Positions 6,312 to 50,486 of a stretch of DNA of 64,000 nt are shown here, piece by piece. Under the pieces are notes generated by a model. That model saw only the letters and a list, made by a program, of their open reading frames with translations, was not told the DNA's origin and did no database searches. Within the stretch, counting starts at the first letter, position 1. Each line of letters starts with the position of its first letter. The position numbers and the translations under genes are program-made. Origin of the DNA: Bacteroidales bacterium (lineage in GTDB: Bacteria; Bacteroidota; Bacteroidia; Bacteroidales; F082). Location: assembly GCA_017549805.1 (NCBI GenBank), contig JAFYNJ010000018.1, positions 12,503-76,502 on the forward strand, read 5' to 3'.

Positions 6312-9300
6312 ATGAAAAAACTGACAACCATTCTCGCTCTGCTATTGATGGCGGCATTTGCACAGGCCCAAGTCATTGAGCAAACATACCATTTCAACCA
6401 ACCTGCCATTTCAACCCAAGACGGTTACCAGCAGATCAACCTCGAAGGCTGTCTGCCCAAAGGTCAAGTAGGCGAGCCTACCCTGCCCTGGCAAAGCGTC
6501 AGTCTGATACTGCCCCAAGGCCAGGAAGCTACTTCCATGACCGTGGAGTTCTTCGATTTTGTGGAGCTGGACGGCACCTACAGGATCTATCCTTACCAAA
6601 AGCCCCGTCCCTACTCCAACGAGAAGACCATTCCGTTTGCCAAGGACGACAACCTTTACCGTTCAAGCGATCCTTATCCGGCACGTAATTACGGTGAAGT
6701 CAGCACCCAGTACCTGAACGGTGTCGCTTTTGCCTTTGGCGGATTCACCCCTGTGCAATACGTGCCTGCCACCGGCAAGATCAGCATTGCACGCACGGTG
6801 AAGGTCAGCATTGAAACCTCGGCAAGTCGCGACGACCACAGCCGCATGCTTTGGCTTACCCCCGAGAACCAGGCTTCCATGGAGCGTCTTGCCCAAAATG
6901 CAACGATGCTGAGCTCCTACAGCAAACGCGGTCGTGAGATTGGCGGTTATGACATGTTGGTAATCACTTCAGAAGAATGGATGCCGCATTTCGGCGAATA
7001 CCTGAACTTTTATAACGGGAAGGGTATCCGTACCCATATCGTGTCGTTGGAAGAGATCTACGCCACCATGGACGGACGCGACGAACAGGAACAAATCCGT
7101 AACTACATCATCCAAGAATACGAGAACAACGGCATCTCAATGGTGAGCCTTGGCGGCGATGTCAGCATCGTGCCTTTCCGTTCCCTTTGGTGCTTTGCCC
7201 AGGAAGGCTATGAAGACCAACTGCCTGCCGACATGTATTATGCCTGCCTCGACGGCACCTTGAACGATGACAACGACGAATTCTGGGGTGAAGTGGGCGA
7301 AGACGACTTGCTGCCAGAGCTCGGTATTGGACGTCTGCCATTCAACAACATGACCCAGTTCGAAACCATCATGCACAAGACGCTCAGCTATCTGCACGAG
7401 CCCGTCTTGGGCGAGTTCACCTCTCCCATCCTCGGCGCCGAGCACCTTGGCGACGGCTATTACGGCAGCGACGACCTGGAGCGACTCATCGGTACCAGCT
7501 CCGATTTCGGTTACACCACCTACGGCTATCCCACCGACTACAATTTCAAGAAGTTTTATGCCGCTCCTGGCAAGCCTTGGAGCGGTGGCGGGTTCAAGCA
7601 AGTCATCGGAACGGGAGGACAGTATGTCCATCATGTGGGCCATGCCAACACCGATGTAGTGGCTGGCTGGGAAGGTTCCATGATGAACGACAACTTCTTC
7701 TCCAGCAACGACGGCATCAACCACAACTTCATGCTATTCCACTCGCATGGCTGCATCTGCGGCAACTTCCCGCACGACTGCATCCTCGAGAAGATGGTCA
7801 CCATCCCCACCGGTTTTGTTGTCACCACAGGCAACTCGCGCTATGGCTGGTATGTGCCGTGGGGTGACGGCATGGCAGCCCACATCCACAGGGAGTTTGT
7901 CGATGCCTACTGCAACGACCTCATCCCCTCCGTGGGCATGGCGTTGAGAGAAGCCAAGATCGCCACGGCGCCATGGGTAACCGTATATGGTGAAGAAGGC
8001 TGTTTGCGTTGGAACATTTATTGCCTCAACGTGTTGGGCGATGCCGCCCTGTATCCTTGGTTCGAAGAGCCCTTCAACCCCAATGTGACCTACGAACAAG
8101 GCTTGATGGCAGGCACCACCTCGACCATTGTCAATGTCAAGCGATATGACGAACCTTTAGGCAACTTCCGTGTCTGTCTATTCGATGGTGAGACCCTTCT
8201 GGCCTCTGCCCTCACCAACAGCAACGGCGAAGCTGTCCTGAACTTTGACCCCGCCCTCGATGTGCTTGGAGAAATGCAACTCATCGTCACCGGACAAAGT
8301 GCCTGGCCACAGGTTTTGGAGGTGAACGGCTTTGAAAGCGGTGAGCCCTACGTCTATGGAGACCTTCTCGACCTTTCAGGAGAAAGCGTAAACGGCAACC
8401 AACTCTTTGTCAGCGGCAACCTATATAACAAAGGCGACGTTACTGCATACAATGTCATACCCAGAGTCACTTCAGATTGCGAATACATCACCGCCTTCGA
8501 AAGCGGCGGCGGTGGTCTAACCATTGAGCCCAATGGCACTAGCTATTTTGATCATATCGGAGCTTTCGAAATCGCCAACAACATCCCCGACCAAACGGTT
8601 TTCACCTTGGATCTTACTGCCTCCATCGGCGATGTCATGCACACCACCAACAAGTCGTTCGTAGCCATGGCTCCCCTGCTCCAGTTCACAGATGTGTTGG
8701 TTGACGACAGCGAAGGCAACGGCAACGGCTTTATCGACCCAGGTGAGCACATCACCCTTCATGTGAGTGGTGCCAATGTCGGTCACGCCATTGCGCCCGG
8801 CACCCAACTTACCGTCAACTGCGACGACGACCGCATCGTATTCGAAGAGAGCACTGTTCAAGTGGGTGACATCAACGCAAGAGGCAACTTTACCGCCAAT
8901 CTCGTCTTCACTTCCGACAACGACATCCAAAGCGGCACCCTCTTCCGTTTCGACATGGAGCTCCAAACCGGCGAATATGCCACTCCTTACCAATACTACT
9001 TCACTGACGGCCAGATTGCAGAAACTTTCGAAAGCAACGACTTCAGTTTCATGGATTGGGAACATGGTGGCGAGCTGCCTTGGTTTATCACCGATGACGA
9101 AGCCCATACAGGCCAATACAGTGCCCGTACGGGAGCCATCGACAACAACGAGTTCTCCCGACTGATCCTCTACGCCGATGTCCTCGCCGACGGTGAAATC
9201 GGCTTCTTCTTCAAGACCTCCACCGAATACCATCACGATTATTTCGCCTTTAATATCGACAACAAGAAGATGGATTGGTGGTCGGGCGAAAACGACTGGA

Positions 9301-9683
9301 CCTACGCCAGCTATCCTGTAACCGCAGGAAGCCACATCTTTGAATGGCTCTATGCCAAAAATCCGAAAAACGTTGCCGGTTCCGACTGTGCATGGATCGA
9401 CGACATTACACTTCCCCGTGCCTGCATTGTCACCCAAGTGGAAGAACTCGTGACACCCAAAACAGTCATGCTTTATCCCAATCCCAGCAACGGCAGCTTC
9501 ACCATCGACCTTGTCGAGGAGAGCAATGTTACCATTTTCAACATGTTGGGACAATGCGTCATGAGTTTGCAACAAGTATCGGGCAGTCAACAGATCCATC
9601 TGGACAATGTCCTGAAGGGCCTGTATCTGGTACAGATCCAAAGCAACTCGGGTGTTGAAACGCTGCGATTAATGCTGGAATAA
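6312..9683 (+). CDS. C25 (gingipain-like) cysteine peptidase family protein with T9SS C-terminal sorting domain, paralog 1
   Basis: Start reset to MKKLTTILALLLMAAFAQAQ (signal peptide). Candidate catalytic His (YVHHVGHANTD) and Cys (FHSHGCICGNF). C-terminal YPNPSNGSFTIDL...VQIQSNSGVETLRLMLE matches a T9SS type A CTD. Confidence 0.85.
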   Translation: MKKLTTILALLLMAAFAQAQVIEQTYHFNQPAISTQDGYQQINLEGCLPKGQVGEPTLPWQSVSLILPQGQEATSMTVEFFDFVELDGTYRIYPYQKPRPYSNEKTIPFAKDDNLYRSSDPYPARNYGEVSTQYLNGVAFAFGGFTPVQYVPATGKISIARTVKVSIETSASRDDHSRMLWLTPENQASMERLAQNATMLSSYSKRGREIGGYDMLVITSEEWMPHFGEYLNFYNGKGIRTHIVSLEEIYATMDGRDEQEQIRNYIIQEYENNGISMVSLGGDVSIVPFRSLWCFAQEGYEDQLPADMYYACLDGTLNDDNDEFWGEVGEDDLLPELGIGRLPFNNMTQFETIMHKTLSYLHEPVLGEFTSPILGAEHLGDGYYGSDDLERLIGTSSDFGYTTYGYPTDYNFKKFYAAPGKPWSGGGFKQVIGTGGQYVHHVGHANTDVVAGWEGSMMNDNFFSSNDGINHNFMLFHSHGCICGNFPHDCILEKMVTIPTGFVVTTGNSRYGWYVPWGDGMAAHIHREFVDAYCNDLIPSVGMALREAKIATAPWVTVYGEEGCLRWNIYCLNVLGDAALYPWFEEPFNPNVTYEQGLMAGTTSTIVNVKRYDEPLGNFRVCLFDGETLLASALTNSNGEAVLNFDPALDVLGEMQLIVTGQSAWPQVLEVNGFESGEPYVYGDLLDLSGESVNGNQLFVSGNLYNKGDVTAYNVIPRVTSDCEYITAFESGGGGLTIEPNGTSYFDHIGAFEIANNIPDQTVFTLDLTASIGDVMHTTNKSFVAMAPLLQFTDVLVDDSEGNGNGFIDPGEHITLHVSGANVGHAIAPGTQLTVNCDDDRIVFEESTVQVGDINARGNFTANLVFTSDNDIQSGTLFRFDMELQTGEYATPYQYYFTDGQIAETFESNDFSFMDWEHGGELPWFITDDEAHTGQYSARTGAIDNNEFSRLILYADVLADGEIGFFFKTSTEYHHDYFAFNIDNKKMDWWSGENDWTYASYPVTAGSHIFEWLYAKNPKNVAGSDCAWIDDITLPRACIVTQVEELVTPKTVMLYPNPSNGSFTIDLVEESNVTIFNMLGQCVMSLQQVSGSQQIHLDNVLKGLYLVQIQSNSGVETLRLMLE

Positions 9684-11912
9684 CCGACCGGTAATCCATT
9701 CGGAGCCACCACCCACCATCACGGTGAATGCCCCAGGCTCCACACGCCATCCATTTTGTGCATCGTAAACGGACAGGTCGCGCTCCGTCAGTTGGAATTT
9801 TATCTGTGTGGATTGCCCTTGATTGAGGTGAATCCTCTGGAATCCCTTGAGCAGCCTGGAGGCAGGTGCTATTGATGCCACCTCATCGCGAACATACAGT
9901 TGCACCACCTCATCGCCGTCAGATGGGCCGACGTTGGTCACCTTGCAGGAGACCTCCATGCCGTCGATTTGCAGGTCGGCATACTCGATTTTTGTATAGC
10001 TCAAGCCATAGCCAAACGGATAGAGCGGCTGGGCCGATTCTTCCACATAGTCGCCCATGGCAGGCTGTGAGTAATAAACCGGAAGTTGTCCCACCGAGCG
10101 CGGCACCGAGATGGGAAGCCGTCCAGCAGGGTTGTAGTCGCCCCAAAGGATGTCGGCCAAAGCAGAGCCACCTTCCATGCCCGGATACCACAGCGTGAGC
10201 AGGGCATCCGAATGTTCGGCAGCCAAGTTCATGTCGAGGGGACGTCCTTGTATATACACCGTCACCACGGGCTTCCCAAGGGCATAAATGCGTTGCATCA
10301 GCTCCTCTTGGCGACCCAACAGCTTCAAGGTGGAACGGTCGTAGCCCTCGCCACAGTCCATGTCGGAGACATGCTCATCCACAATGGCAGCACCTGTGTC
10401 TTCGTAGCTTGTCTTGAAATCGCGCGCCGAGGAGCCACCCACCACCAGAACTACTGCATCGGCTGAACGGGCCGCCTTCACTGCCGCTTCAAGGTCGGCA
10501 TCTTGCTCATCACGGATAGAACATCCTTGGGCATACAGAACCTCTGCCCTGCCCTTTTGCCGAATGCCTTCGAGCATGGTCACAACGCCGTCAGGGTCCT
10601 GAGGAGCGGTGTAGTCGCCAAGTTGGTTGTATTGGTTATCGGCATTGGGTCCGATGACGGCCACCTTTTTGATGGCATCGCCGAATGGCAGGATGCCGTT
10701 GTTTTTCAGCAGCACGACCGACTCCAAAGCCACTTGTTTGGCCAGTTGGGCGCTCTCGGAAGTGCCCACTTCGGTTTCGGCCAAAGTCTCGTCCACGTAT
10801 GGATTTTCAAACAATCCGAGATCGTATTTCAGTTGCAGCACACGGCGCACCGAACGGTCGATGTCCGCCTCGGTAACAAGTCCGCGGCGCAAGGCTTCCT
10901 TAAGGAATCCGCCATAGTTGTAGCCTCCAAGGTCGATGTCCACGCCCGCTTTCAGCGCCAAGGCAGCGGCTTCGGCAGGATCGGCAGCCACGTGTTGGGT
11001 GGCATAAAGGGCGTTGACGGCATTCAAGTCGGCAAACACCACACCTTTGAAGCCCCACGACTGGCGCAGCACTGTTTGGAGCAGCCATGTGTTGGCCGAA
11101 CAAGGCACTCCGTCGATGGTGTTGTAGGCTGTCATCACCGTTTGGGCACCACCTTCGCGGATGGCCCTTTCAAACGAGGGCAGGTAGTCCGTCATCAAAT
11201 GGTTTTGTCCCACCTCGGCGTTGGCGGCATTGTGGCCGCCTTGCGGGATGCCATAGGCTGCAAGATGCTTGAGGGTGGCATAAACATGCCGTTGCATGCC
11301 CTTTACGACAGCTGTGCCCAACACGCCCGAGAGGTACGGATCCTCGCCCATGGTCTCCTCCACCCTCGACCAACGCGGGTCGCGGGCGATGTCGAGCACG
11401 GGGCCATAACCGATATGGGCGCCTTGCAGGCGAATCTCACGGCCCATCACCTCGCCCATCTGCTCCAACAGCTCAGGATTCCAGGTGCTGGCTTGGCCGA
11501 TGCCTGTGGGGAACACGGTGGTACCCACGGCCATGTGGCCATGGGGTGTCTCTTCACAGAAGAACATGGGGATGCCAAAACGCGTGTGTTCAACAGCGTG
11601 CCGCTGCATCCTGTTGAGGAGCCGCGCCGACTCAGCTGGATGCAGACCCGTCTCGACGGTTTTCCGTGACCACGGATCGGCACGCAGCACCGCCCAGCAC
11701 GAGCCCAAGGGCATGGTGTCCATCAATTTGACGAAGTCGTCCGACAACCACAGCGAGTCACCGTCTTTTCCGTAATAGTTAAAGCCGATGGGACAAGTCA
11801 GCTGCCCGCATTTCTCCTCGAGGGTCATTTGCGAAATGAGTTCATCTATCTTGTCCGGCTTGGAACAAGCAACAAACGTCACTGCGAGAAGCAATACGGT
11901 CAAACGTCTCAT
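9669..11912 (-). CDS. bglX: Glycoside hydrolase family 3 beta-glucosidase, lipoprotein signal
   Basis: 747 aa. GH3 N- and C-terminal domain motifs (DPRWSRVEETMGEDPYL, GFKGVVFADLNAV). Signal LLLAVTFVAC. Confidence 0.9.
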   Translation of the reverse strand: MRRLTVLLLAVTFVACSKPDKIDELISQMTLEEKCGQLTCPIGFNYYGKDGDSLWLSDDFVKLMDTMPLGSCWAVLRADPWSRKTVETGLHPAESARLLNRMQRHAVEHTRFGIPMFFCEETPHGHMAVGTTVFPTGIGQASTWNPELLEQMGEVMGREIRLQGAHIGYGPVLDIARDPRWSRVEETMGEDPYLSGVLGTAVVKGMQRHVYATLKHLAAYGIPQGGHNAANAEVGQNHLMTDYLPSFERAIREGGAQTVMTAYNTIDGVPCSANTWLLQTVLRQSWGFKGVVFADLNAVNALYATQHVAADPAEAAALALKAGVDIDLGGYNYGGFLKEALRRGLVTEADIDRSVRRVLQLKYDLGLFENPYVDETLAETEVGTSESAQLAKQVALESVVLLKNNGILPFGDAIKKVAVIGPNADNQYNQLGDYTAPQDPDGVVTMLEGIRQKGRAEVLYAQGCSIRDEQDADLEAAVKAARSADAVVLVVGGSSARDFKTSYEDTGAAIVDEHVSDMDCGEGYDRSTLKLLGRQEELMQRIYALGKPVVTVYIQGRPLDMNLAAEHSDALLTLWYPGMEGGSALADILWGDYNPAGRLPISVPRSVGQLPVYYSQPAMGDYVEESAQPLYPFGYGLSYTKIEYADLQIDGMEVSCKVTNVGPSDGDEVVQLYVRDEVASIAPASRLLKGFQRIHLNQGQSTQIKFQLTERDLSVYDAQNGWRVEPGAFTVMVGGGSEWITGRLFQH

Positions 11913-40397: not shown

Positions 40398-43300
40398 AAA
40401 CTTCAAGGTCTATCAAGCCTCCGCAGGATCCGGTAAGACCTATACCATAGTCAAGGAATATCTCAAACTGTGCCTGAAAGACAGCAACTCCACAACCAAT
40501 TTCAGCCAAATCCTTGCCATCACCTTTACCAACAAGGCGGCCAACGAGATGAAGGAAAAGATTGTGCAGCAGCTCAACGACATCATCAACAGCGATCCGA
40601 GCCAAGCGCCCCAAGGCATGGAAGCCGACTTGATTGAAGAGCTCAACATCGGCAGGGAGTCCCTGAAAGTCAATGCTCAATTGCTATTCCAACACATCAT
40701 CCACGATTATAGCAGTTTCTGCGTCAGCACCATCGACTCGTTTGTTCAAAAGCTGGCTCGATCCTTTGCAAAGGACCTCCATCTGCCTACCCAATATAAT
40801 GTCAACATCGACAAGGAAGAAACAGCCGATGCCATCACCGATCGCCTTGGAGAACAAATAGGAAGCTCCGATACCTACCTGACCGAAATTGTTGAGGACT
40901 TCAGCAAGACAAAGTTTGACAATGAGAAGAGCTTCAAAATCACCAAAGACATCTATGAGTTCGTCATAAAGCTCTTTTCGGAAGAGGCTTACCAGAAAAA
41001 CGAGACAAATCATTTTGAGACCAAGGAACAATACGAAGAAACGCTCGACTTTCTCCGAAAGAAGACCCAACCTTTTGAAGCCCAATGCCGGAAGTTTGTC
41101 AAGGAATTCGATGCCTTCATTAAGAGGAACGGCCTTACCGCCAATGACTTCTACAAACAAAGCACCAGTCCCTGCATCAGCATCTTCAAAAAACTGAAGA
41201 AAAACGAATACGGCCTTGTCAACGACAACCTCGCCAAAATAATCAAGGGCGATGCCCACTGGTATCACAATACCCTGCCCAATCGCATCGGAGCCACCGC
41301 TCTTGAGGCACTCGACAAGGATTTCCAGCAGACAATCCTCCCCTTTCTCAAATCCTATCAAGCCCAAATCGGCAACTTCTTATTCTACAAGGAACAGCTA
41401 AATAATCTCAGCCTCTATGTGTTGCGATTCAAGCTCAAATCCGAGATAGAGAGCTATATCGGTGAAGAACAGATTGTCCCCATCTCAGAGTTCAACAAAC
41501 GCATCAACCAAATCCTGGGCGATTTTTCCGTACCTTTCATCTACGAACGGCTTGGGGAGCATTTCAGGCATCTCTTTATCGACGAGTTCCAGGACACCTC
41601 CGTGCTGCAGTGGCAGAACCTCATGCCGCTTGTTGACAACAGCTTGGCCAACAACAACATGAGCATGATCGTGGGCGACGGCAAGCAATCGATCTACCGT
41701 TTCCGCAATGGCGAGGTGGGACAAATCATCAACCTCCCGTTCATTTACGGCAAACCCACCGACGCGCCTGCCTTTGACGATTATGAGAGAAATTTCCACA
41801 ACAACTTCAATTTCAATGCATTAAACCGAAATTTCAGGTCGTTTAAGAACATCGTTGATTTCAACAACAGCTTCTTCGAGTTCAGTTCCGCCTATCTTCC
41901 CGAGAGTTGCCGGAAAGTCTATGTCGATCAAAACGAATACAAGCAGGTATCCATCGAACAGCAGCATTTTTTCGAAGAAGAAGGATTTGTCCAAGTTGAG
42001 TTGATTGACGCCAATCCCAGCAATGCCGATCCCATGCTTTCGCGCATCAAGGAGCTGATTGAGGACCTGACCAGCAAAGGGTTCCGCAAAAGCGACATCA
42101 CCATTTTGATCCGTACCAACAAGATTGGGGTGTTGATTGCCGATTACCTCAACAAAAACGGCATTGACATCTTCTCTGCAGAGTCCATCCTGCTGTGTGC
42201 CTCCGACAAGGTCCAGCTGATTGTCAACTCACTGGATTACCTGATCCACAATGACAATCCAGCCAAGATTGCAACGGTGCTGTATTATTGGAATGCCACG
42301 CATCAAGCTAATTTCAATGGGGTTGTGGACGGGTTCTTCGACAAGGTCGCGATGATCGGCCAAGGCCAAACCACCATGGAGAAAGCCATGAAATTGGAAC
42401 CGGACGTCTTCAAGTCATTGCTGTCCAAATCATACAGCCTATATGACCTTTGTTCAGCATTGATGCGGCTTTACGGCTTCAACACGGTTGGCGATGCCTC
42501 CCTCAACTTCCTGCTCGACGTCGTTTTCAAATGGCAGCATTCTAACGAAAACGGCATCGATGGTTTTTTGGAATTTTGGGAAACGAAGAAGGACGACCTT
42601 TCTGTGCTATGCAACAATGTGGATGCCGTCAATATTATGACCGTCCACAAGTCGAAAGGCCTGGCCTTCCCGGTGGTCATCTATCCCTTTGTAAAGGACG
42701 ACCTTAACGACCGAAAGACCAACTCCATCTGGATTACGCCTGAGGAATTGGGATTCGAGACCATCCCTAACATCGAAAAGGTGCAGTTCGATCTCACCGA
42801 AAACAACTCCAAGTTGAACCCCAAAACCCAAAAGATTGTCGAACAGGAGCTGGAAAAAGTCCGTCTCGACAATCTGAATGTCCACTATGTGGCTTTCACC
42901 AGGCCCAGACAACGGCTCCATATCCTTGCCTATCAAAACAACGACACCACGGGGAAAAGCCCAATAAATGCCTTCCTCAAATCCCATCCCGACAGTTACG
43001 GGGATCCCGAAAGCCGCAAGGTGGAAAGCAATAAAGAGCCCGACCTTCCTGAAGAAATCCACAACGATTCGAGATCCAGCGAGTGGTTCGACAAGATCAG
43101 CATCGACCCCATGCCGAGCATGTTCTGGATATCGAAGGAAAACAAGATGAAACCCGTGGAATGGGGCACCTTTGTCCATCAGGCACTGTCGGAAGTCCAG
43201 CATGCCGAGGACATCCATCATGTGTTGGATCCCTACATCAATTCCGGAATCCTCGACACACAAACCGCTTTGATGCTGCAAGGCATTTTCGTGCAGATGG

Positions 43301-43593
43301 TCATCCATCCTTCCATTTACGAGGCTTTCACCGACCAAGCCAAGGTAAAGAACGAATGCGAGATCCTGTCGCACCAATACGGCATCATCCGTCCCGACCG
43401 TTATGCGGAGCTGCCCGACAAGATCATCCTTTTGGATTACAAGACCGGCCAGAAGGAACGCAAGCATCACGACCAGCTCATGGAATACGCCACCGTCCTG
43501 AAAGAGATGGTCAACAAGAAGATCGACGCCTATCTGGTGTATTTGGGCGATACGGTAGAGGTGGTGCCAGTCCTCAACAATGTCAAAAAATAA
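40381..43593 (+). CDS. UvrD/AddA-type helicase with C-terminal PD-(D/E)xK nuclease domain
   Basis: Walker A SAGSGKTY, FIDEFQDTS, VGDGKQSIYRFRNG, TVHKSKGLAFP, YVAFTRPRQRL. Nuclease-like IIRPDRY...ILLDYKTG. It overlaps the tamB end by 17 nt. Confidence 0.85.
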   Translation: MSQATKNFKVYQASAGSGKTYTIVKEYLKLCLKDSNSTTNFSQILAITFTNKAANEMKEKIVQQLNDIINSDPSQAPQGMEADLIEELNIGRESLKVNAQLLFQHIIHDYSSFCVSTIDSFVQKLARSFAKDLHLPTQYNVNIDKEETADAITDRLGEQIGSSDTYLTEIVEDFSKTKFDNEKSFKITKDIYEFVIKLFSEEAYQKNETNHFETKEQYEETLDFLRKKTQPFEAQCRKFVKEFDAFIKRNGLTANDFYKQSTSPCISIFKKLKKNEYGLVNDNLAKIIKGDAHWYHNTLPNRIGATALEALDKDFQQTILPFLKSYQAQIGNFLFYKEQLNNLSLYVLRFKLKSEIESYIGEEQIVPISEFNKRINQILGDFSVPFIYERLGEHFRHLFIDEFQDTSVLQWQNLMPLVDNSLANNNMSMIVGDGKQSIYRFRNGEVGQIINLPFIYGKPTDAPAFDDYERNFHNNFNFNALNRNFRSFKNIVDFNNSFFEFSSAYLPESCRKVYVDQNEYKQVSIEQQHFFEEEGFVQVELIDANPSNADPMLSRIKELIEDLTSKGFRKSDITILIRTNKIGVLIADYLNKNGIDIFSAESILLCASDKVQLIVNSLDYLIHNDNPAKIATVLYYWNATHQANFNGVVDGFFDKVAMIGQGQTTMEKAMKLEPDVFKSLLSKSYSLYDLCSALMRLYGFNTVGDASLNFLLDVVFKWQHSNENGIDGFLEFWETKKDDLSVLCNNVDAVNIMTVHKSKGLAFPVVIYPFVKDDLNDRKTNSIWITPEELGFETIPNIEKVQFDLTENNSKLNPKTQKIVEQELEKVRLDNLNVHYVAFTRPRQRLHILAYQNNDTTGKSPINAFLKSHPDSYGDPESRKVESNKEPDLPEEIHNDSRSSEWFDKISIDPMPSMFWISKENKMKPVEWGTFVHQALSEVQHAEDIHHVLDPYINSGILDTQTALMLQGIFVQMVIHPSIYEAFTDQAKVKNECEILSHQYGIIRPDRYAELPDKIILLDYKTGQKERKHHDQLMEYATVLKEMVNKKIDAYLVYLGDTVEVVPVLNNVKK

Positions 43594-43596
43594 AGA

Positions 43597-43654
43597 TTGC
43601 ACTTCAAAAAGTGTAGTTTGATATAATTTTTGCACTTTAAAAAGTGCAGTTTGA
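43597..43654. repeat. Two 25-bp direct repeats, each containing a GCACTT-N4-AAGTGC-type palindrome, 33 bp apart
   Basis: TTGCACTTCAAAAAGTGTAGTTTGA (43597..43621) and TTGCACTTTAAAAAGTGCAGTTTGA (43630..43654). They sit between the addA-like stop and the ATPase promoter. Confidence 0.8.
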
Positions 43655-43665
43655 AGAATTTTTAC

Positions 43666-43673
43666 TATTTTTG
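43666..43673 (+). promoter_or_regulatory. -7 promoter box TAttTTTG upstream of the AAA ATPase gene
   Basis: Exact TAnnTTTG match 15 nt before the ATG at 43688. Confidence 0.45.
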
Positions 43674-43687
43674 CAAAAAAATATGGT

Positions 43688-44863
43688 ATGGAAACACTAA
43701 TTGAGTCTTTTAAGATATTGCTGGATTTGACCCCAATGGATTATGTCAGAAGCTTTCATGACAAAATCAATTGGAAAAACAGGCTTATTGGGCTGATGGG
43801 TCAGAAGGGCGTGGGGAAATCGACGCTTTTGCTCCAGCACATCAAGAATTATGACAACCTTGAGGAAACGCTGTATGTTCAGGCCGATGACATGTATTTC
43901 GCCGGGCACGGACTATTTGAAACTGCATACGATTTCTTCAAAAGAGGCGGAAAACGCTTGTATATAGACGAAATTCACAAATACAAAGGTTGGTCCACAG
44001 AGATTAAAATGATTTATGACAGGTTGCCTTCGCTGTCAGTCGTTTATTCTGGAAGTTCACTCTTGGCATTGAAAAAAGGTGGTTCCGCAGACTTAAGCAG
44101 GCGTACCATCGAATACACCATGCCTGGCCTATCGTTCAGGGAATACCTCAATATCGCCAATGGGTGGAATCTAAAAACCTCGTCGTTGGCAGACATCCTA
44201 AAAGGGAAAGTCGATTTCCCGTATGGGGAGCACCGCCCGCTGAAATATTTTGAGGAATACCGCAAAAAAGGTTATTATCCCTATTTCAAGGAAGAAGATT
44301 TCCTTACAAAACTGAAACAGGCCATCAACGAGACCGTTGAACACGACATCCCCGCATACGCCGAGATGCCTATAGCTTCGGCCGTAAAGTTGAAAAAGTT
44401 GATGTATGTGCTGGCCAACAGCGTGCCATTCAAACCGAACTACAGCAAACTGTCGCGTGAATTGGAAATCGGGCGAAACCAGCTCCCAGAGTACATCAAT
44501 TATCTTGAAAAGGCCCGTCTTTTCAATGGTTTAAAAGAAAAGGGCGCAAGCGATTCGATCATCCAGAAGGTAGAAAAACTATACTTGAGCAACAGCAACA
44601 TAGCTTACGCCATCTCCGACACCAAACCCGACGAGGGGACTGTTAGGGAAATGCTGTTCCTCACATGGATGCGCGAGTTGTACATTGTAACAACCTCTAA
44701 GATATCCGATTTCGAAATTGATGGGATCACTTTTGAGGTTGGCGGCAAGAGCAAGAAGGGGCAGCAGGTTAAAGACGCCTCCATCGCCTATCTCGTGAAG
44801 GACGGAATAGAATACGCCGGGGGCAATTCCATTCCTATCTGGATGTTTGGGTTTGTTTATTAA
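43688..44863 (+). CDS. AAA family ATPase (AAA_14 plus DUF4143-type architecture)
   Basis: Walker A GQKGVGKST, Walker B LYIDEIH. Length and C-terminal half are typical of COG1373-type ATPases. Confidence 0.75.
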   Translation: METLIESFKILLDLTPMDYVRSFHDKINWKNRLIGLMGQKGVGKSTLLLQHIKNYDNLEETLYVQADDMYFAGHGLFETAYDFFKRGGKRLYIDEIHKYKGWSTEIKMIYDRLPSLSVVYSGSSLLALKKGGSADLSRRTIEYTMPGLSFREYLNIANGWNLKTSSLADILKGKVDFPYGEHRPLKYFEEYRKKGYYPYFKEEDFLTKLKQAINETVEHDIPAYAEMPIASAVKLKKLMYVLANSVPFKPNYSKLSRELEIGRNQLPEYINYLEKARLFNGLKEKGASDSIIQKVEKLYLSNSNIAYAISDTKPDEGTVREMLFLTWMRELYIVTTSKISDFEIDGITFEVGGKSKKGQQVKDASIAYLVKDGIEYAGGNSIPIWMFGFVY

Positions 44864-44890
44864 AGATACTATTGCCCAACGCAACCTGAT

Positions 44891-45130
44891 TCACTCATCC
44901 CCTACCACGCAATACACAAACTCCCTTTCGACCGACTTCTCATAAGACCTTCGATATTGGATTTCTTTTCTCAGCCGCCCGAACTCCTCATGCAATGCGC
45001 TGATTTGCTTGTTGACAGCTTTGATTTTGGCGGCATCGGTTAGCGTGGGGTTCTTTTGATTTAAGGACTTGATTTGGAGCTTTAGAGCATGTGGTTTTTC
45101 TGAATTAGCTATTGGTCTATGTCTTTTGAA
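44891..45130 (-). pseudogene. Startless copy of the 73-aa coiled-coil gene at 45838..46059
   Basis: Hand translation gives an open 79-codon frame ...EKPHALKLQIKSLNQKNPTLTDAAKIKAVNKQISALHEEFGRLRKEIQYRRSYEKSVEREFVYCVVGDE*. It is collinear with MEDLEKLQFLKFQIKDLEQKRTSLTDADQIKAINKQINAFQEELGKLREILKHERAFLKDVEREFIHCEIGGD. No ATG/GTG/TTG lies upstream of the conserved part. Confidence 0.55.
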
Positions 45131-45247
45131 TTATGATAATGGCTTTATAAAAACAGTTCTTTGTTGCAAAAGCAAAAAAACTTAACTCTTGACGATTATT
45201 ATCTATTTTTGAACCATAAATGCCTAATCGATATGCAATTCCCTTAA

Positions 45248-45796
45248 CTATGCAAGGTCTCTTTCTTTTATTTCTAATATTGTCAAAACTGCAGATTCAG
45301 AACAATAACCGCTACAAGCCTCTTCTTTCAGAAAATGCCGCATCAGATGTTCAAAACACCAAGAGAGTGAAAAAGAAATATCGTCGCGTTTCTTTTTTAA
45401 TAGTGTCAATGTTTTTTGATAATCTTTATTAGTGATTATGCCATCTCTCAACGACTTTTTCAAATCCTTAATCTTTTGCTCTACGATTTCAAACTCACGT
45501 TTTGCTTGGGCTTTTTGGTCAAAGTAATCCGGCAAGGCTTTCATTATTTCATCCCTGTGTTCGACAACTAAATTGTAAAAGTCCCAAAGGCCCATGAGTG
45601 TTTGTTTTGCACGCTCCTCTGCCTTTTCTCCTGTCCATCCGAAAGGCGCAAAATATGGTATATGGCTTCCGCCGTGCAAATAACCGCTAGGTATTTCCAA
45701 AGAGCACACCAAATCTTTATGAGAATATGAGAACTTCCCTCTTATGATAGTTCCTTCGTATTCAAATTGGATTTCTTTTTCAGGACTATTTTCCAT
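45248..45796 (-). CDS. Hypothetical protein (182 aa)
   Basis: Longest ORF in an AT-rich stretch, co-oriented with its neighbours. No recognisable motif. Confidence 0.5.
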   Translation of the reverse strand: MENSPEKEIQFEYEGTIIRGKFSYSHKDLVCSLEIPSGYLHGGSHIPYFAPFGWTGEKAEERAKQTLMGLWDFYNLVVEHRDEIMKALPDYFDQKAQAKREFEIVEQKIKDLKKSLRDGIITNKDYQKTLTLLKKKRDDISFSLSWCFEHLMRHFLKEEACSGYCSESAVLTILEIKERDLA

Positions 45797-45837
45797 TATT
45801 TAAATTATTCTTGGCTCCCGAAGCATCAATACTGTTA

Positions 45838-46059
45838 TTAATCACCCCCAATCTCACAGTGGATAAACTCTCTTTCAACGTCTTTCAGAAAGGCCCTCTC
45901 GTGTTTCAGTATTTCCCTCAACTTCCCAAGCTCTTCCTGGAAGGCGTTGATTTGCTTGTTAATGGCTTTGATTTGGTCAGCATCAGTCAGCGAGGTCCTC
46001 TTTTGCTCCAAGTCTTTGATTTGAAACTTTAGGAATTGTAGTTTTTCTAAATCTTCCAT
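45838..46059 (-). CDS. Hypothetical coiled-coil protein (73 aa)
   Basis: Heptad-like charged sequence. It shares the L-Q-I-x-x-L-x-Q-K...LTD...I-x-A-[IV]-[ND]-[KQ]-Q-I module with 44891..45130 and with the N-terminus of 46962..47579. Confidence 0.5.
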   Translation of the reverse strand: MEDLEKLQFLKFQIKDLEQKRTSLTDADQIKAINKQINAFQEELGKLREILKHERAFLKDVEREFIHCEIGGD

Positions 46060-46088
46060 TATTTTATGGTTTTACAATTTGATAGGCT

Positions 46089-46115
46089 CAAAATAAGAGG
46101 CGGCCAAGCCGCCTC
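46089..46115 (-). terminator. Rho-independent terminator after the 46137..46358 gene
   Basis: Minus strand reads GAGGCGGC-TTG-GCCGCCTC followed by TTATTTT. Confidence 0.65.
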
Positions 46116-46136
46116 CTTCAATAATGCTTTCAAACG

Positions 46137-46358
46137 TTAAAGTTTTGTGACTTCGAACATCGAATCCGAAATACTTCCTTCAATTCGATTCCCCGTTTGT
46201 TCTGCCCACATATGGACAGCATTTGTGGCATGTCCACGGGACAAATCGTTGTTGCTCTCAACTATAAAAGATTCTCCTTTTTTGTAGCGTTTGCCTCCAG
46301 CAAAGAAAGCACCGTCACGAGTGACTGTAACAAGAAATTGCGCCATAGTTTTATGCAA
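46137..46358 (-). CDS. Hypothetical small protein (73 aa; may start at the MAQFLV Met)
   Basis: ORF followed by a clear terminator. Family not recognised with confidence. Confidence 0.5.
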   Translation of the reverse strand: MHKTMAQFLVTVTRDGAFFAGGKRYKKGESFIVESNNDLSRGHATNAVHMWAEQTGNRIEGSISDSMFEVTKL

Positions 46359-46441
46359 TTGCCTTTACATTGCGAGGTTGTTATTGTTTTTTGTTTATTT
46401 AAATTTCTTTTTCAGCAAGCAACTCTTGTAATTGCCAGACC

Positions 46442-46738
46442 TCAATCCAACCTCCAGCCGTCTGCGACAAGGTCTTCCATGGAGTCGTAATGGGCAATGA
46501 TTGGCCCGTTCTCTTTTTTCTCAAAAGCATCGTCCTCTGTCGAGAAGAAGTCCTCGTCCGAAATGACACGGATATTATATTTACAGTTATGCAAATCAGA
46601 AGTGCTGATGTAGGGCACCGCGTCTTCGGGAACACCCTCGTGATAAGGTTTAAACACAGGGGTGGGCGGCATGCATTTCTCATAAATCTCTCGTAGCATT
46701 TCAAGTTGCCTCATTCTTTGTTCTTGTTCTCTATCCAT
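46442..46738 (-). CDS. Hypothetical protein (98 aa), acidic
   Basis: ORF tightly packed (3 nt) behind 46741..46935. No motif recognised. Confidence 0.5.
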   Translation of the reverse strand: MDREQEQRMRQLEMLREIYEKCMPPTPVFKPYHEGVPEDAVPYISTSDLHNCKYNIRVISDEDFFSTEDDAFEKKENGPIIAHYDSMEDLVADGWRLD

Positions 46739-46740
46739 TT

Positions 46741-46935
46741 TCAGTTTGTCTCCTTCTTTTTATAATGGATCAAGACGATGGTTTTGTTTTGACACTCTGA
46801 GAGTTTGATGTCAACAACGTCAACATATTTATCATTGACTTGCAACCATTGGTTTACTTTGTCTTGTATCTCTTCGATGTTGTCGTGAAACACCTTCACT
46901 GAGTTAGTATTGTTCATTCCATGTACTACTGCCAT
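46741..46935 (-). CDS. Hypothetical small protein (64 aa), Cse60-like layout
   Basis: VKVFHDNIEEIQDKVNQWLQVNDKYVDVVDIKLSE...IVLIHYK resembles the small Cse60/DUF2758-type pattern. Weak, from recollection only. Confidence 0.4.
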   Translation of the reverse strand: MAVVHGMNNTNSVKVFHDNIEEIQDKVNQWLQVNDKYVDVVDIKLSECQNKTIVLIHYKKKETN

Positions 46936-46961
46936 AGTTCTTGATATTTATTGGTTTGTGT

Positions 46962-47579
46962 TTATAGATTTCCCAGCCAAATGCCTCGGCACAAAGCCTT
47001 GGCGGTTTCATGGTCAACAATGCGCATCAACTGATAGGTGTATTTGTCTGTTGCCTCATCATCAATCGCCTCCAAATCAAAAGCATCCCAATACTCCTTA
47101 CCGTATTCAGGGCACAAGAACCTTATCACATCGACAAATGTGATTTTCTCGAATCGTTTCAAGTGGTCATTTTTAACATATTCCCGAAGCCAATAACTAC
47201 CTGCCCAAAACGCAACCGTTCTTTGTCCTATAGTCGCTTTATCCTTATCCAATGTCAGAATCCCCAAAAGCCTCATGGCTTGATAAGGAGGAATATTGGC
47301 ACCTTGCTCCGCCAATTCATAGAACATTTTTTCGTCTTCATTTAATTCTTCCACCATCTTAGGATTTGAGTCATCCTCTGAACCATTGAAGACAACATCA
47401 ATGAGAGCCTTCACATTATTTCTTTCTTCCAACCAATCTTCCGCCTCCAAAGCATCAATTTGCTGATCGATGGCATTTATTTCTGCGACATCGGTCAGAG
47501 CGGCCTTCTTTTGCTCTAATTCCATGATTTGAAGCCGTCGTTCACGTAATCCTTTTGATTTTTCTATAGAATCATTCAT
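46962..47579 (-). CDS. Hypothetical protein (205 aa) with N-terminal coiled-coil module
   Basis: The N-terminus RRLQIMELEQKKAALTDVAEINAIDQQIDALEAE is the third copy of the island module. The C-terminal 140 aa is unassigned. Confidence 0.5.
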   Translation of the reverse strand: MNDSIEKSKGLRERRLQIMELEQKKAALTDVAEINAIDQQIDALEAEDWLEERNNVKALIDVVFNGSEDDSNPKMVEELNEDEKMFYELAEQGANIPPYQAMRLLGILTLDKDKATIGQRTVAFWAGSYWLREYVKNDHLKRFEKITFVDVIRFLCPEYGKEYWDAFDLEAIDDEATDKYTYQLMRIVDHETAKALCRGIWLGNL

Positions 47580-47605
47580 CTGCTTATAGTTATTCTGTTT
47601 TCATT

Positions 47606-47977
47606 TCAGTCCCAGTGACGCCAAGTGTTTTCTTTAGTGCTAACACGATACCCATCATTCACCAACAAATCAACAAGGGACGAAAACGGCTTTGACATGG
47701 TGATACAAGCCACTCCTTTAGGATCCCAACATTCTATGGTCTCAACCGAATCTGGGAAAGCGATTTTGGTCAATGCTGTACATCCCAAAAAAGCATTAGG
47801 ATTTATCGTTTCAACCGTTTTTGGCAAAACCACTTCTTTCAAATCTGTATAATTCAAAAAAGCTCCACTATCAATTATCTTTGTTCCATCAGGAATGACA
47901 CACACACCATCTTTGATATCATCGGGATGACCAAAATAATGATCATACTTTCCTATTCTTTTATCTGCTTTTGCCAT
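47606..47977 (-). CDS. Small BspA-type leucine-rich-repeat (LRR_5-like) protein
   Basis: IPDGTKIIDSGAFLNYTDLKEVVLPKTVETINPNAFLGCTALTKIAFPDSVETIE matches the IPxxVxxIGxxAFxxCxxL repeat. Confidence 0.55.
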   Translation of the reverse strand: MAKADKRIGKYDHYFGHPDDIKDGVCVIPDGTKIIDSGAFLNYTDLKEVVLPKTVETINPNAFLGCTALTKIAFPDSVETIECWDPKGVACITMSKPFSSLVDLLVNDGYRVSTKENTWRHWD

Positions 47978-48100
47978 ATTATTTGTTTTTATTTTTTTCT
48001 ATCCTTTTTTTCATCGCAAAGAAACACCCATTTCCTCAATCCCATCTGGATCTTATTGGTTCATATCACCCCGCCGTTTGACAACACAAAAAAAGCGTGA

Positions 48101-48108
48101 TACTTTTG
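48101..48108 (+). promoter_or_regulatory. -7 promoter box TActTTTG pointing into the long hairpin
   Basis: Exact TAnnTTTG match 7 nt before the hairpin base at 48115. Confidence 0.35.
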
Positions 48109-48114
48109 CATCCG

Positions 48115-48231
48115 CTTATCGAGGTGTTTGGCATACCTAAAGAAACCGAATGTTAAAAGTTCACGCTATACGGCGTGACTTTTAGCATTATCTCCGTTTC
48201 TTTATCCAAAAATCGCCAAACTTCCGATAAG
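48115..48231. ncRNA. 117-nt imperfect hairpin: candidate sRNA, or structured 5' leader/antisense pair
   Basis: Manual pairing: 48115-48121 with 48225-48231; 48126-48132 with 48215-48221; 48139-48146 with 48196-48203; 48152-48159 with 48179-48186; 48161-48166 with 48173-48178. Loop TATACG. Strand undetermined. Confidence 0.45.
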
Positions 48232-48316
48232 AAAGATTACTGCTAATTGTCTGTATTGCTTATCTCATACGCCTTGCGGCAAGATCACTTCATAGGCATT
48301 TTTTTGTTTTACGCTT

Positions 48317-48324
48317 CAAAGATA
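48317..48324 (-). promoter_or_regulatory. -7 promoter box (minus strand TAtcTTTG), candidate promoter of the small-gene island
   Basis: The plus strand reads CAAAGATA. It lies just downstream (minus sense) of the lipoprotein gene terminator, about 340 nt before the ATG at 47977. Confidence 0.4.
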
Positions 48325-48363
48325 AGTATTTTTTGAAATCAATCAAAGCGATTGTTGGTTTTT

Positions 48364-48404
48364 ATAAAAAAAAGCGGCAACGCCTTTTTCCTGACGATGC
48401 CGCT
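48364..48404 (-). terminator. Rho-independent terminator after the 48437..49261 lipoprotein gene
   Basis: Minus strand reads AGCGGCA-N18-TGCCGCT followed by T8. Confidence 0.6.
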
Positions 48405-48436
48405 CAAAGAACCTGACGTTCCAACTTCAGTCATCT

Positions 48437-49261
48437 CTATTCATCATATTCAAAGACCGCGTCAGTAAAACTCTCTTCAATCTTTTCATAACGCTTCTTC
48501 TGGGTCGAGGTCATCTTGCCCGACTTGTATGCCTTATCCAGTTCATCCTCTAAATCGTCAGCCGCCCAAAAGTATTTATCAACTTGAGATTCAACACTCT
48601 TGTCTCCCTTGCTAAGCTTCTTTACATACTTGATATATTCGTTCACGTTCTTTTCATAATCATCAAGCATTTTGTTCCAGTCTTGGCTGGATGATGACGA
48701 TGAAACGGTGGTGTTGTTAGCCGTGCTACTTGAACTGCTTGACTTGTGAGCCCAACTCAATTCCACAGTCAGACCAATCCCGTCAATAAGGTCAAAATAG
48801 GCTTTTTGTTTTTTGTATGATTTATCACCAAAACCATATTCAATGATCGGGACATTCCCCGTGATAAGCTCATTCGATTTCAACAGCTTTTCTCCACTTT
48901 GATAATCCGTCTGAACATCGAGATCCACCTTCATATTATACTGGTCGATGTACTTGGCATATATTCTTACCCCATAAATACTATGATCAAGTTTGGGATC
49001 ACTTCCTGGTATTTCGTTCCAAAGAGTTGTGTTTTTTAGCGGAAGATCGGCACGAATCTCCCATTTGTCACCCTCCACCCCAACTGGAACAAGCATCAAC
49101 GTGACGGGATCCTCAATCTCAAAAAGATCGGCATTTTTCCCGTCAATGCTCACCCTATCGGATGAAATCGTCTTGCTTAACACTTTCTTTTTCTGGCATG
49201 AGGTGACGGTAACCGCTAACAACATCAGGACAACAAGTCCAAACAGTCCTGTCTTTTTCAT
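48437..49261 (-). CDS. Lipoprotein with poly-Ser linker, unknown function
   Basis: Lipobox LLAVTVTSC. Internal SSSSSSTANNTTVSSSSSS linker, then a charged helical C-terminal domain. Confidence 0.65.
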   Translation of the reverse strand: MKKTGLFGLVVLMLLAVTVTSCQKKKVLSKTISSDRVSIDGKNADLFEIEDPVTLMLVPVGVEGDKWEIRADLPLKNTTLWNEIPGSDPKLDHSIYGVRIYAKYIDQYNMKVDLDVQTDYQSGEKLLKSNELITGNVPIIEYGFGDKSYKKQKAYFDLIDGIGLTVELSWAHKSSSSSSTANNTTVSSSSSSQDWNKMLDDYEKNVNEYIKYVKKLSKGDKSVESQVDKYFWAADDLEDELDKAYKSGKMTSTQKKRYEKIEESFTDAVFEYDE

Positions 49262-49355
49262 CTGAAAATCCCTAATTCCGTGTCGGGCGCAACTTCTAAA
49301 GGTAAATTGAAATACCTTGCAAAGAAACGCCCTTTCAACGGAATATCCGCGGATC

Positions 49356-50486
49356 TTATTGGCTCATGTTTTGGGCGTTTTCCTCATTGATCCTATCCGA
49401 CAACCTGAAACAAACCGCGTTGTACTTCTCGTTGTGGAGATGCTCCCAGGCCGTGACGAACTCATCACGGGTTTTCGGATCGTCGAGCAAGGGTGACTGG
49501 ATGTCCTGCAGCAACGACCTGCAAACCTTCACCCGATCCACAAAGTCAAGAGAAACCTCTTGACTGGATTTGCCACTGTCAAGGTCGGCCAACACGGGGT
49601 TGTACATGCTGTCGATGATATGCTCCGCCCTATCGAGAAGTTCCGTGAACTCAAGGGAATAACCATCGAGGCGAGACAGCTCTTTCGACCTCATGAAAAA
49701 CAACGCCGCCAATAGGCCCAATACGGCAACTACCAAAGCCAACTTAGGCCAGACGGCCCTGTTTCGGAAAGCCTTCTGTACGGCTTCAATATTGCCGTAA
49801 CGGCGCTCCCTGTCTTGACGAGAACACTTGGCGGCAATGTGTCGGAAACGATTCGGAAAGACCTCTCGCAACAACATGCCGAAAGTGTAAATGTCGGCGC
49901 GACCGTCAATCTTCACCTCGGGCTGTATCTGCTCCGGCGCCATGTATTGCTGCGTGCCTGCGGGTTGCTTCAACAAGGCATAATCGTCCGCATCGGAAAG
50001 ACCGAAGTCAATCAGCTTTACATTGTGACCATTACGGGTAATCAGGATGTTACTCGGCTTCAAGTCGCGATGGACGATTTGCTTACCATGGACATACTTC
50101 AAGGCATCCAAGATCTGTTCCAGCACCTTCTTTTTCTCCGAAACTGATGGATTGGCCCTCAAAAACTCATCCAACGTCACTCCATCCACATACTCCATCA
50201 CAATGCACGGGCCCACCTCGGGATTCACCTCCTTGTATAACGCCTTCACGATGTTGAGATGATCCATCTGAATGGAAAGCTCATATTCCTTTTTCAGCAG
50301 ATCCAGGTACATGGGCTGCTGCATGAACTCCGGCTTCAAACCTTTCAGCAGGAACCATCTACCCTGACGCATGACCTTCACCAAGCGGTTGAATCCATGC
50401 GTCGTCAGCTCCTCGTAAGTCAGCTGCTCGTCTAAATCGGTGATAAAGCCGCCATCAATGATCTCGGAGGTGAAGTCTTCGTCCAT
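49356..50486 (-). CDS. Membrane-anchored serine/threonine protein kinase
   Basis: HRDLKPSNILI catalytic loop, DFGLS, APEQ. One TM helix (WPKLALVVAVLGLLAALFF) followed by a helical C-terminal domain of about 110 aa. Confidence 0.85.
   Translation of the reverse strand: MDEDFTSEIIDGGFITDLDEQLTYEELTTHGFNRLVKVMRQGRWFLLKGLKPEFMQQPMYLDLLKKEYELSIQMDHLNIVKALYKEVNPEVGPCIVMEYVDGVTLDEFLRANPSVSEKKKVLEQILDALKYVHGKQIVHRDLKPSNILITRNGHNVKLIDFGLSDADDYALLKQPAGTQQYMAPEQIQPEVKIDGRADIYTFGMLLREVFPNRFRHIAAKCSRQDRERRYGNIEAVQKAFRNRAVWPKLALVVAVLGLLAALFFMRSKELSRLDGYSLEFTELLDRAEHIIDSMYNPVLADLDSGKSSQEVSLDFVDRVKVCRSLLQDIQSPLLDDPKTRDEFVTAWEHLHNEKYNAVCFRLSDRINEENAQNMSQ

Follow-up and report, generated by a model that had tools for sequence, protein, structure and literature searches.

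We analysed a 64,000-nucleotide (nt) stretch of a rumen Bacteroidales genome (GenBank assembly GCA_017549805.1, contig JAFYNJ010000018.1, positions 12,503 to 76,502; hereafter the window), in which a short coiled-coil coding module occurs three times. The copies, here called A, B and C (Table 1), are paralogues: B is an intact gene of 73 codons, C carries the module as the N-terminal part of a fusion, and A is a whole paralogue that is probably silenced. They lie in a hypervariable island of small genes, beside a single-gene ATPase cassette that matches the defence candidate PDC-S01. On balance we favour the reading that this is a recombination-prone gene family next to a mobile defence-candidate cassette, in which the conserved core of the module serves as an unprogrammed substrate for recombination.

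The mechanism would be ordinary homologous recombination. In diverged copies, no sequence outside the core (~65-90 nt) is similar enough for this process, and the core could therefore act as a portable homology patch in which crossovers and conversion tracts start or end. This would give rise to mosaic alleles, to truncated copies and to modules fused with various downstream domains, and it would also replace the ATPase cassette. Several ATPase cassette subtypes bear a module fragment at one end, and such fragments might work as homology arms that permit recombination into any genome with a module gene.

The three copies reported by the initial annotation are present. All lie on the minus strand, and a repeat search, tblastn and a profile search agree on their positions; tblastn and a profile hidden Markov model find exactly these three in the 64 kb. 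At the nucleotide level they form one family of 90-nt repeats (conserved cores at 44989-45078 in A, 45936-46025 in B and 47444-47533 in C), with identities to the middle member of 74% and 71% for the two outer ones. Within the window tblastn yields E values of 8e-21 for A against B, 2e-6 for A against C and 7e-7 for B against C. Local alignments of the DNA reach z-scores of 34, 11 and 13 relative to composition-preserving shuffles (32, 12 and 11 for the proteins). The most conserved part of the core spans about codons 20-43 and reads (L)TDAxEIKAINKQINALQE, and seven columns (I14, L17, K20, D26, A32, Q36 and I37) are invariant in an alignment of 16-17 family members. Given these columns and shuffle z-scores of 11-34 for DNA and protein, the similarity reflects homology, and the generic coiled-coil composition that had been raised as its possible cause does not explain it.

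How far the homology extends differs between the copies. C shares only its N-terminal 45-64 residues with A and B and diverges after codon 43-64, continuing with a disordered acidic linker (residues 66-77) and an all-alpha domain, here called X (residues 81-205). For A and B, by comparison, all 73 codons align collinearly (36 of 73 amino acids and 146 of 219 nt identical), including a C-terminal VEREF..C..GD tail. The original statement that the sequences downstream of the module differ is thus correct for the 205-residue gene only, and not for A against B.

The frame of A is indeed startless: it runs for 79 codons from stop to stop, and no ATG, GTG or TTG precedes the homologous part. The ATG of B is aligned to an ATA in A (45112-45110), from which the frame remains open to a TGA at 44893-44891. 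This ATA is found in all independent assemblies examined (eight related loci, L001-L008) and is therefore not a sequencing error. Together with the collinearity, the alignment of ATG to ATA makes A a whole paralogue with a point-mutated start, and not a 5' module on a new 3' part. A also deviates at four conserved columns (L7P, K21N, N38S and Q41H), the largest number among close copies. Judged from its sequence, A was probably silenced by the ATG-to-ATA change, so that it is untranslated and starting to decay. Silent or broken copies are common in the family: among 57 non-redundant copies about 27 are startless or partial, against about 22 intact genes and about 6 fusions of the module with X.

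The intact members represent a real protein gene under purifying selection, since the ratio of nonsynonymous to synonymous substitution rates (dN/dS) among them is 0.09-0.33. A search of 5.8 billion proteins returned nine close homologues of B with lengths of 72-80 residues, and a profile search of 1.84 billion cluster representatives returned 41 clusters at 50% identity. All family members stem from rumen or gut metagenomes or from Bacteroidales metagenome-assembled genomes (MAGs) of cattle, yak and goat, whereas zero relatives were found in IMG/VR viral contigs, PLSDB plasmids and GenBank phages. Compared with Pfam, NCBIfam, PHROGs and PADLOC, the module, domain X and a further domain Y (see below) give weak generic coiled-coil matches only. 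The 73-residue protein is predicted to be a cytoplasmic alpha-helical hairpin or coiled coil with an acidic C-terminal tail. An AlphaFold2 model of C (mean predicted local distance difference test score, pLDDT, of 80) likewise contains a helical hairpin (helices 2-27 and 31-64), an acidic disordered linker and an all-alpha domain; Foldseek detects no significant structural neighbour of it in PDB and BFVD. For the 182-residue protein encoded between B and A, a four-stranded sheet with long helices is modelled (mean pLDDT 73), with no significant match in PDB. Over both models Foldseek returns nothing below an E value of 0.02, and the matches are coiled-coil lookalikes.

Evidence for recombination at the module comes, first, from a comparison of strains, which had been proposed at the outset. 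The loci L001-L008 represent the same site, between a kinase/lipoprotein pair and an ATPase/helicase pair, yet their gene content differs. Between the window and L003 there are 53 mismatches over 3.4 kb, of which 28 fall within 44903-45000 (minus strand), that is, in the 3' half of A starting from the 3' edge of the core. The strains are otherwise near-identical, with zero mismatches in the adjacent 1.2-kb ATPase gene, and the alternative allele of A is present in three independent assemblies (L003, L004 and L006). By its sequence pattern this patch of ~100 nt is gene-conversion-like. B is ruled out as its donor, as the patch is at most 79% like any copy in the window, and the donor is not among the copies sampled, the best match being 85-87%. 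B itself is identical in all eight loci.

A second trace of exchange is seen against L005. Here the identity is at least 98% from ~46345 (the start of the 'MHKTMAQ' gene) to ~45035 in the middle of the core of A, with flanks at 75-90%. It decays inside the core and the sequences are unrelated after 44985, where the ATPase of L005 is 38% identical to that of the window. This pattern indicates that a recent exchange between diverged lineages ended inside the core of A.

Relatives of the module show what such events could produce. Apart from its fusion with X (as in C), the module is joined to an NT5C deoxynucleotidase (P0036-P0039), to domain Y (P0040 and P0066) and to Y followed by X (P0020), while the whole 73-residue type is fused to X in P0024 and P0029, and Y plus X occurs without the module in P0033-P0035. 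The proposed arrangement of a conserved 5' segment with variable 3' parts is therefore borne out in these relatives, but not in A, which lacks a different 3' part. Domain Y is homologous to the N-terminal ~95 residues of the 182-residue protein, encoded just after B in the window, and in the fused proteins P0040, P0020 and P0066 it immediately follows the module. The NT5C gene of L005 stands on its own, right after a C-type gene, whereas in L009 the module-NT5C fusion P0036 occupies that position; the fusion would therefore have arisen by deletion between neighbours. Mosaics are found as well: the first 27 residues of P0002 are B-type and the remainder is A-like, and P0020 and P0039 combine a 73-aa-type N-terminus with a C-type middle. 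P0021 starts with a piece of the upstream leucine-rich repeat (LRR) gene. The largest module-bearing protein measures 205 residues in the window and 320 among the relatives.

The initial annotation likened the layout to that of cassette-switching or gene-conversion systems. Read as a programme, this would mean that an expressed locus receives variable 3' parts from silent copies. Three features agree with such a programme: one copy has no start codon, the 5' segment is conserved across the family while its 3' partners vary, and A contains the conversion patch. The orphan-like layout also recalls the orphan modules of contact-dependent inhibition (CDI) and Rhs systems. Recombination inside the module is indeed supported by the mosaics, the patch and the exchange endpoint, but programmed switching is not. 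A offers no alternative 3' cassette, since A and B share their whole length; the patch sits in the silent copy, whereas the expressed B is invariant. Moreover, the copies are direct repeats on one strand, with no inverted repeats, and no integrase or recombinase is present in the genes within ~8 kb either side (precomputed Pfam). Logan contigs of four DNA runs with this sequence hold no junctions between the copies, though contigs drop rare variants; unitigs break at the repeats, and in run X3 one contig has another 3' partner after codon 39 of a B-like copy. The suggested likeness to polymorphic toxin tips and antigenic-variation loci concerns the layout only: the module products lack a signal peptide, and scans with Pfam, NCBIfam and PADLOC turn up no domain of a toxin, immunity or surface protein in them. 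We thus consider programmed switching very improbable. An invertible shufflon or phase-variable locus was also rejected, given the direct repeats and the lack of a recombinase nearby.

The module is also linked to the ATPase gene next to A. The two genes are convergent, with stop codons 27 nt apart, and the ATPase matches PDC-S01 of PADLOC with an E value of 7.7e-30. PDC-S01 is a single-gene phage-defence candidate without experimental validation (PMC12988326) and is reported to be the commonest single candidate locus for defence in genomes from the rumen (PMC13356809). Two palindromes lie upstream of the gene (Table 1) and travel with it into other contexts: their motif has four matches against 0.13 expected, and it also precedes the homologues of the gene in L044-L048. 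These homologues are 82-91% identical and occur in unrelated contexts that lack the module, with homology running from the palindromes exactly to the stop codon. Because such homologues occur without the module and have sharp ends, the ATPase is best described as a compact single-gene cassette of ~1.27 kb whose association with the module is one-way. In the window the cassette covers 43594-44863, where each of its ends adjoins the stop codon of a neighbouring gene.

To quantify the association, six-frame translations of the related loci were scanned with profiles of the module and the ATPase, and random positions in the same loci served as the expectation. Of the 57 non-redundant module copies, 29 lie at most 300 nt from an ATPase frame, against 7.9% expected (binomial P about 2e-17); the ATPase profile was built on five sequences, so that distant members may escape it. 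All four relative orientations of module and ATPase occur. The junctions are abrupt: 0-30 nt separate the ATPase stop from module sequence, and the same types recur in different MAGs. In partial copies elsewhere, recurrent breakpoints border the core. ATPase subtypes are 36-40% identical to each other and each has its own junction. In the literature searched, no small coiled-coil gene or fragment is described at the ends of PDC-S01 cassettes.

Two loci from another Bacteroidales MAG lineage (L013 and L014) contain module copies in a defence-type island. This island also holds three AAA_14-family ATPase genes (two with DUF4143), a KAP NTPase, an EcoRI-type methylase, a GmrSD-like nuclease and a Fic protein. 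A 375-nt tandem duplication, composed of an ATPase 3' remnant, the module core and the C-terminus, is located at 9366-10126.

It might be argued that the adjacency reflects joint function, with the 73-residue protein as an accessory subunit, regulator or neutraliser of the ATPase-nuclease and the fusions bringing domains to the same complex; A, B and C would then be partner genes and decayed relatives of such genes. The adjacency is strong across ATPase subtypes of 36-40% mutual identity, and several loci have a module gene on the ATPase strand at 50-140 nt upstream, or in divergent orientation about 200 nt away. By the 'Rosetta stone' argument, joint action is also suggested by the module being fused to domains of neighbouring genes. 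Nonetheless, neither orientation nor spacing is fixed, and intact copies account for about 9 of the 29 ATPase-adjacent copies against about 17 of the 28 non-adjacent ones (hand count); in the window it is the startless A that adjoins the ATPase. The link is not obligate either, as the 82-91% identical homologues persist without a module nearby. PDC-S01 occurs tens of thousands of times across prokaryotes (PMC12988326), against 41 clusters for the module, and zero module-ATPase fusions are found among these clusters. A functional partnership is in our view unlikely. For the same want of a module-ATPase fusion we rejected the idea of an effector-associated domain, carried by both ATPase and effectors.

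The sharp ends of the cassettes, with homology that stops at the stop codon and palindromes of their own upstream, would also suit targeted insertion. Self-mobilising (homing-like) cassettes, or cassettes moved by an unlinked recombinase, would then preferentially cut or integrate at the core, and the module copies would be duplications of an attachment site. In line with this, ATPase genes often lie between directly oriented module copies (L005, L013, L020, L022, L025 and L029), several unrelated right-hand junctions fall within about 15 nt (clustering at codons 39-45), and the layouts of L005, L025 and L040 are those expected if a circle consisting of the ATPase and module codons 1-43 had integrated in the Campbell manner. 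DUF4143 has furthermore been placed in the PD-(D/E)XK nuclease superfamily (PMC3424549). The left-hand junctions, however, are scattered, an association with a transposase or integrase was not found among these cassettes, and homologues of the ATPase are inserted at sites without a module. In the window the cassette occupies the 3'-3' gap between the helicase gene and A, leaving the core untouched. We know of no such targeting activity for this ATPase family, and overall regard targeted insertion as rather improbable.

In comparison to these alternatives, we keep to the reading in which the core is a substrate for ordinary, unprogrammed recombination. Several observations weigh against it, or at least restrict how far it can be taken. 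The synonymous-site identity of codons rises mildly within the core (codons 31-37), which leaves constraint at the DNA level as an explanation for the core not decisive. With one junction per ATPase subtype, the number of independent junction events is about 8-10, and not 29. Left-hand breakpoints are spread over codons 6-27 with no single precise site. The apparent retention of the core is partly a matter of ascertainment, as related loci were retrieved via the module and a fragment must contain the core to be detected; the C-terminal-only fragment of L013 was found by blastn only. The dN/dS of A against intact copies (0.12-0.28) is no different from that among intact copies, so that either loss of function is recent or the ATA is still used at a low level. 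Finally, recombination is deduced here by comparing assemblies and was not observed as such. Metagenome assemblers can form chimeras at repeats, but the key junctions and the alternative allele of A recur in independent assemblies.

A possible, though doubtful, extension is that the core is a dedicated docking sequence for PDC-S01 cassettes, used either via a homology arm that they carry or through cutting by their own PD-(D/E)XK domain. If this were true, module-marked sites would allow rumen Bacteroidales to trade versions of the defence candidate that is most abundant among them with no need of an integrase, which would amount to a new, gene-embedded exchange system. Should the core be a homology handle, it would provide a testable route for integrase-free turnover of defence genes and an example of a short coding repeat that drives domain shuffling. 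Should it not be one, the locus is still a clean case of paralogue-driven mosaicism, with gene fusion and fission among small uncharacterised proteins. In addition, the locus shows PDC-S01 ATPases as sharp-ended single-gene cassettes that recurrently abut full or broken copies of a lineage-specific gene.

Between the lipoprotein/kinase pair and the ATPase, the region 44891..47977 (minus strand) comprises eight small genes or gene copies, all co-directional. Along the direction of transcription these are the LRR gene of 123 residues, C, genes of 64 and 98 residues, the 73-residue 'MHKTMAQ' gene, B, the 182-residue gene and A; coordinates of the main features are listed in Table 1. The GC content of the array is 37-42% against 48-52% in the flanks. 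Gene content at the same chromosomal site varies by strain: L003, L004 and L006 have extra genes of 209 and 92 residues, inserted at 46338-46395 and flanked by a repeat stretch with an element of ~30 nt, and L005 and L007 carry NT5C, 200-residue and 472-residue LRR genes. From its composition and variability, the array is characterised as a low-GC hypervariable island of genes for small, presumably cytoplasmic proteins.

The element of ~30 nt has the sequence AACCTCGCAATGTAAAGGCAATTGCATA.AACTATGGC and precedes several unrelated island genes. It lies upstream of three different genes in L004 (about 6650-6704, 7330-7384 and 7660-7713) and is also present in L005 (about 6180-6229). Copies of it also surround the extra genes of other strains, where the element marks insertion boundaries. 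Other island genes are alike in their first codons only (MAVVHG.. and MAEK..), which suggests that recombination may also occur at conserved gene starts.

Parts of the inserted genes recur elsewhere. The N-terminal ~110 residues of the 209-residue protein (L004 6705-7334) return as the N-terminus of the 472-residue LRR protein (L005 6230-7648). The same ~110 residues form the C-terminal domain of a 317-residue protein at L019 6457-7410, which by eye has the look of a KAP-type NTPase. The 92-residue gene (L004 7385-7663) duplicates the 3' half of the 209-residue gene, with the same upstream element.

With respect to transcription, a GC-rich hairpin followed by a T-rich run is located at 46097-46117 (minus strand), between the 'MHKTMAQ' gene and B. 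This is likely a terminator, which would divide the array into two transcripts. A sigma-70 scan is uninformative for Bacteroidota. The Bacteroidota -7 promoter motif has just two candidates on the minus strand of the island, at 48324 and 48574, both of them upstream of the LRR gene. Rfam gives zero RNA family matches across 43000-49500. The region upstream of the LRR gene has some peculiarities of its own. In each of the four runs, Logan contigs are 2-4x deeper at 47922-48322 than around it, which makes this stretch multi-copy in the samples. The segment 48016-48064 recurs at 49319-49367, upstream of a lipoprotein gene of 274 residues, and 71 nt at 48138-48210 are skipped in contigs of three of the four runs, an indel polymorphism upstream of the array.

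Table 1. Features at the module locus, ordered by position in the window (ORF, open reading frame; aa, amino acids).
Feature	Position	Strand	Basis or remark
Two palindromes, TTGCACTT-N4-AAGTGCA	43597..43649	.	40-90 nt upstream of ATPase start
AAA_14-DUF4143 ATPase, 391 aa	43688..44863	plus	Pfam E 2e-26 (AAA_14), 1.5e-6 (DUF4143)
Copy A, full-length 73 codons, ATA at start position	44891..45112	minus	paralogue of B
~30-nt element, degenerate second copy	45232-45258		across stop of 182-aa gene, 120 nt upstream of A
182-aa gene, between B and A	45248..45796	minus	ORF
Copy B, intact, 73 aa, ATG start	45838..46059	minus	ORF; identical in 8 related loci
73-aa 'MHKTMAQ' gene	46358..46137	minus	ORF
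~30-nt element, 27-nt copy	46352..46378	minus	repeat search; upstream of 'MHKTMAQ' gene; AACCTCGCAATGTAAAGGCAATTGCATA...ATGGC
Copy C, 205 aa	46962..47579	minus	module residues 1-64 = 47579..47388
LRR_5 protein, 123 aa	47977..47606	minus	ORF

Among known systems, the orphan modules of CDI and Rhs loci come to mind first. There too, partial or startless copies retain a short homology to an expressed gene, in an array of one orientation within a variable island, and recombination at the shared stretch can swap the downstream sequence. Startless copies homologous to an expressed gene are likewise present here, A with its ATA being one of many across the family. The differences are nonetheless considerable. 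CDI and Rhs systems have a large secreted delivery protein, a demarcation motif and toxin and immunity domains, whereas the products here are helical proteins of 73-205 residues, predicted to be cytoplasmic, and silent copy A is a whole paralogue and not a new C-terminal tip. The module-bearing proteins have no signal peptide and, by Pfam and NCBIfam, no delivery domain, and the C-terminal partners X, Y and NT5C have no match to a toxin or immunity family, fold searches being uninformative.

The rAID-1 arrays of Bacteroidales (bioRxiv 10.1101/471110) are similar in that small, co-directional, low-GC genes vary between strains and are separated by short repeats. Where rAID-1 features at least two co-directional genes with a GC content of at most 41%, the array described here has eight genes or copies at 37-42%. 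In rAID-1, however, a gene for an XerD-like tyrosine recombinase heads the array, whereas none does so here, and the repeated unit here is coding sequence; no Pfam or NCBIfam match to immunity families is found in the array. Integron cassettes resemble the locus as single-gene units that are gained and lost at one site and are bounded by a repeat. They depend on IntI, attI and Pc, whereas here the repeat lies inside a protein gene and the orientation of the ATPase is not fixed. Folded as single-stranded DNA, the cores are no better than shuffles in attC-like folding (z -1.0 to +1.4). With no IntI found and no attC-like hairpins at the cores, an integron was rejected.

With pilE/pilS the locus shares a non-expressed homologue near an expressed one and patchy conversion tracts. 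It differs in having a single silent copy of the same length, a non-surface product, an expressed copy that is invariant among the strains seen and no initiation element found at the locus. As for PDC-S01, the neighbouring gene at 43688-44863 is a member by profile match, with AAA_14 and DUF4143 in a single protein. The junctions themselves resemble homology-facilitated illegitimate recombination and Campbell-type single-crossover integration: on one side there is a clean homologous join in the core, on the other a junction with no such homology, and in some loci (L005 and L025) the homologous segment is duplicated around the inserted gene. These are general mechanisms and not a described system, and their use here is proposed from the anatomy of the junctions. 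Overall, the sequence comparisons point to a known kind of process, namely recombination-driven shuffling of cassettes and domains in a variable island; what appears to be new is the presence of module fragments at the ends of PDC-S01 cassettes.

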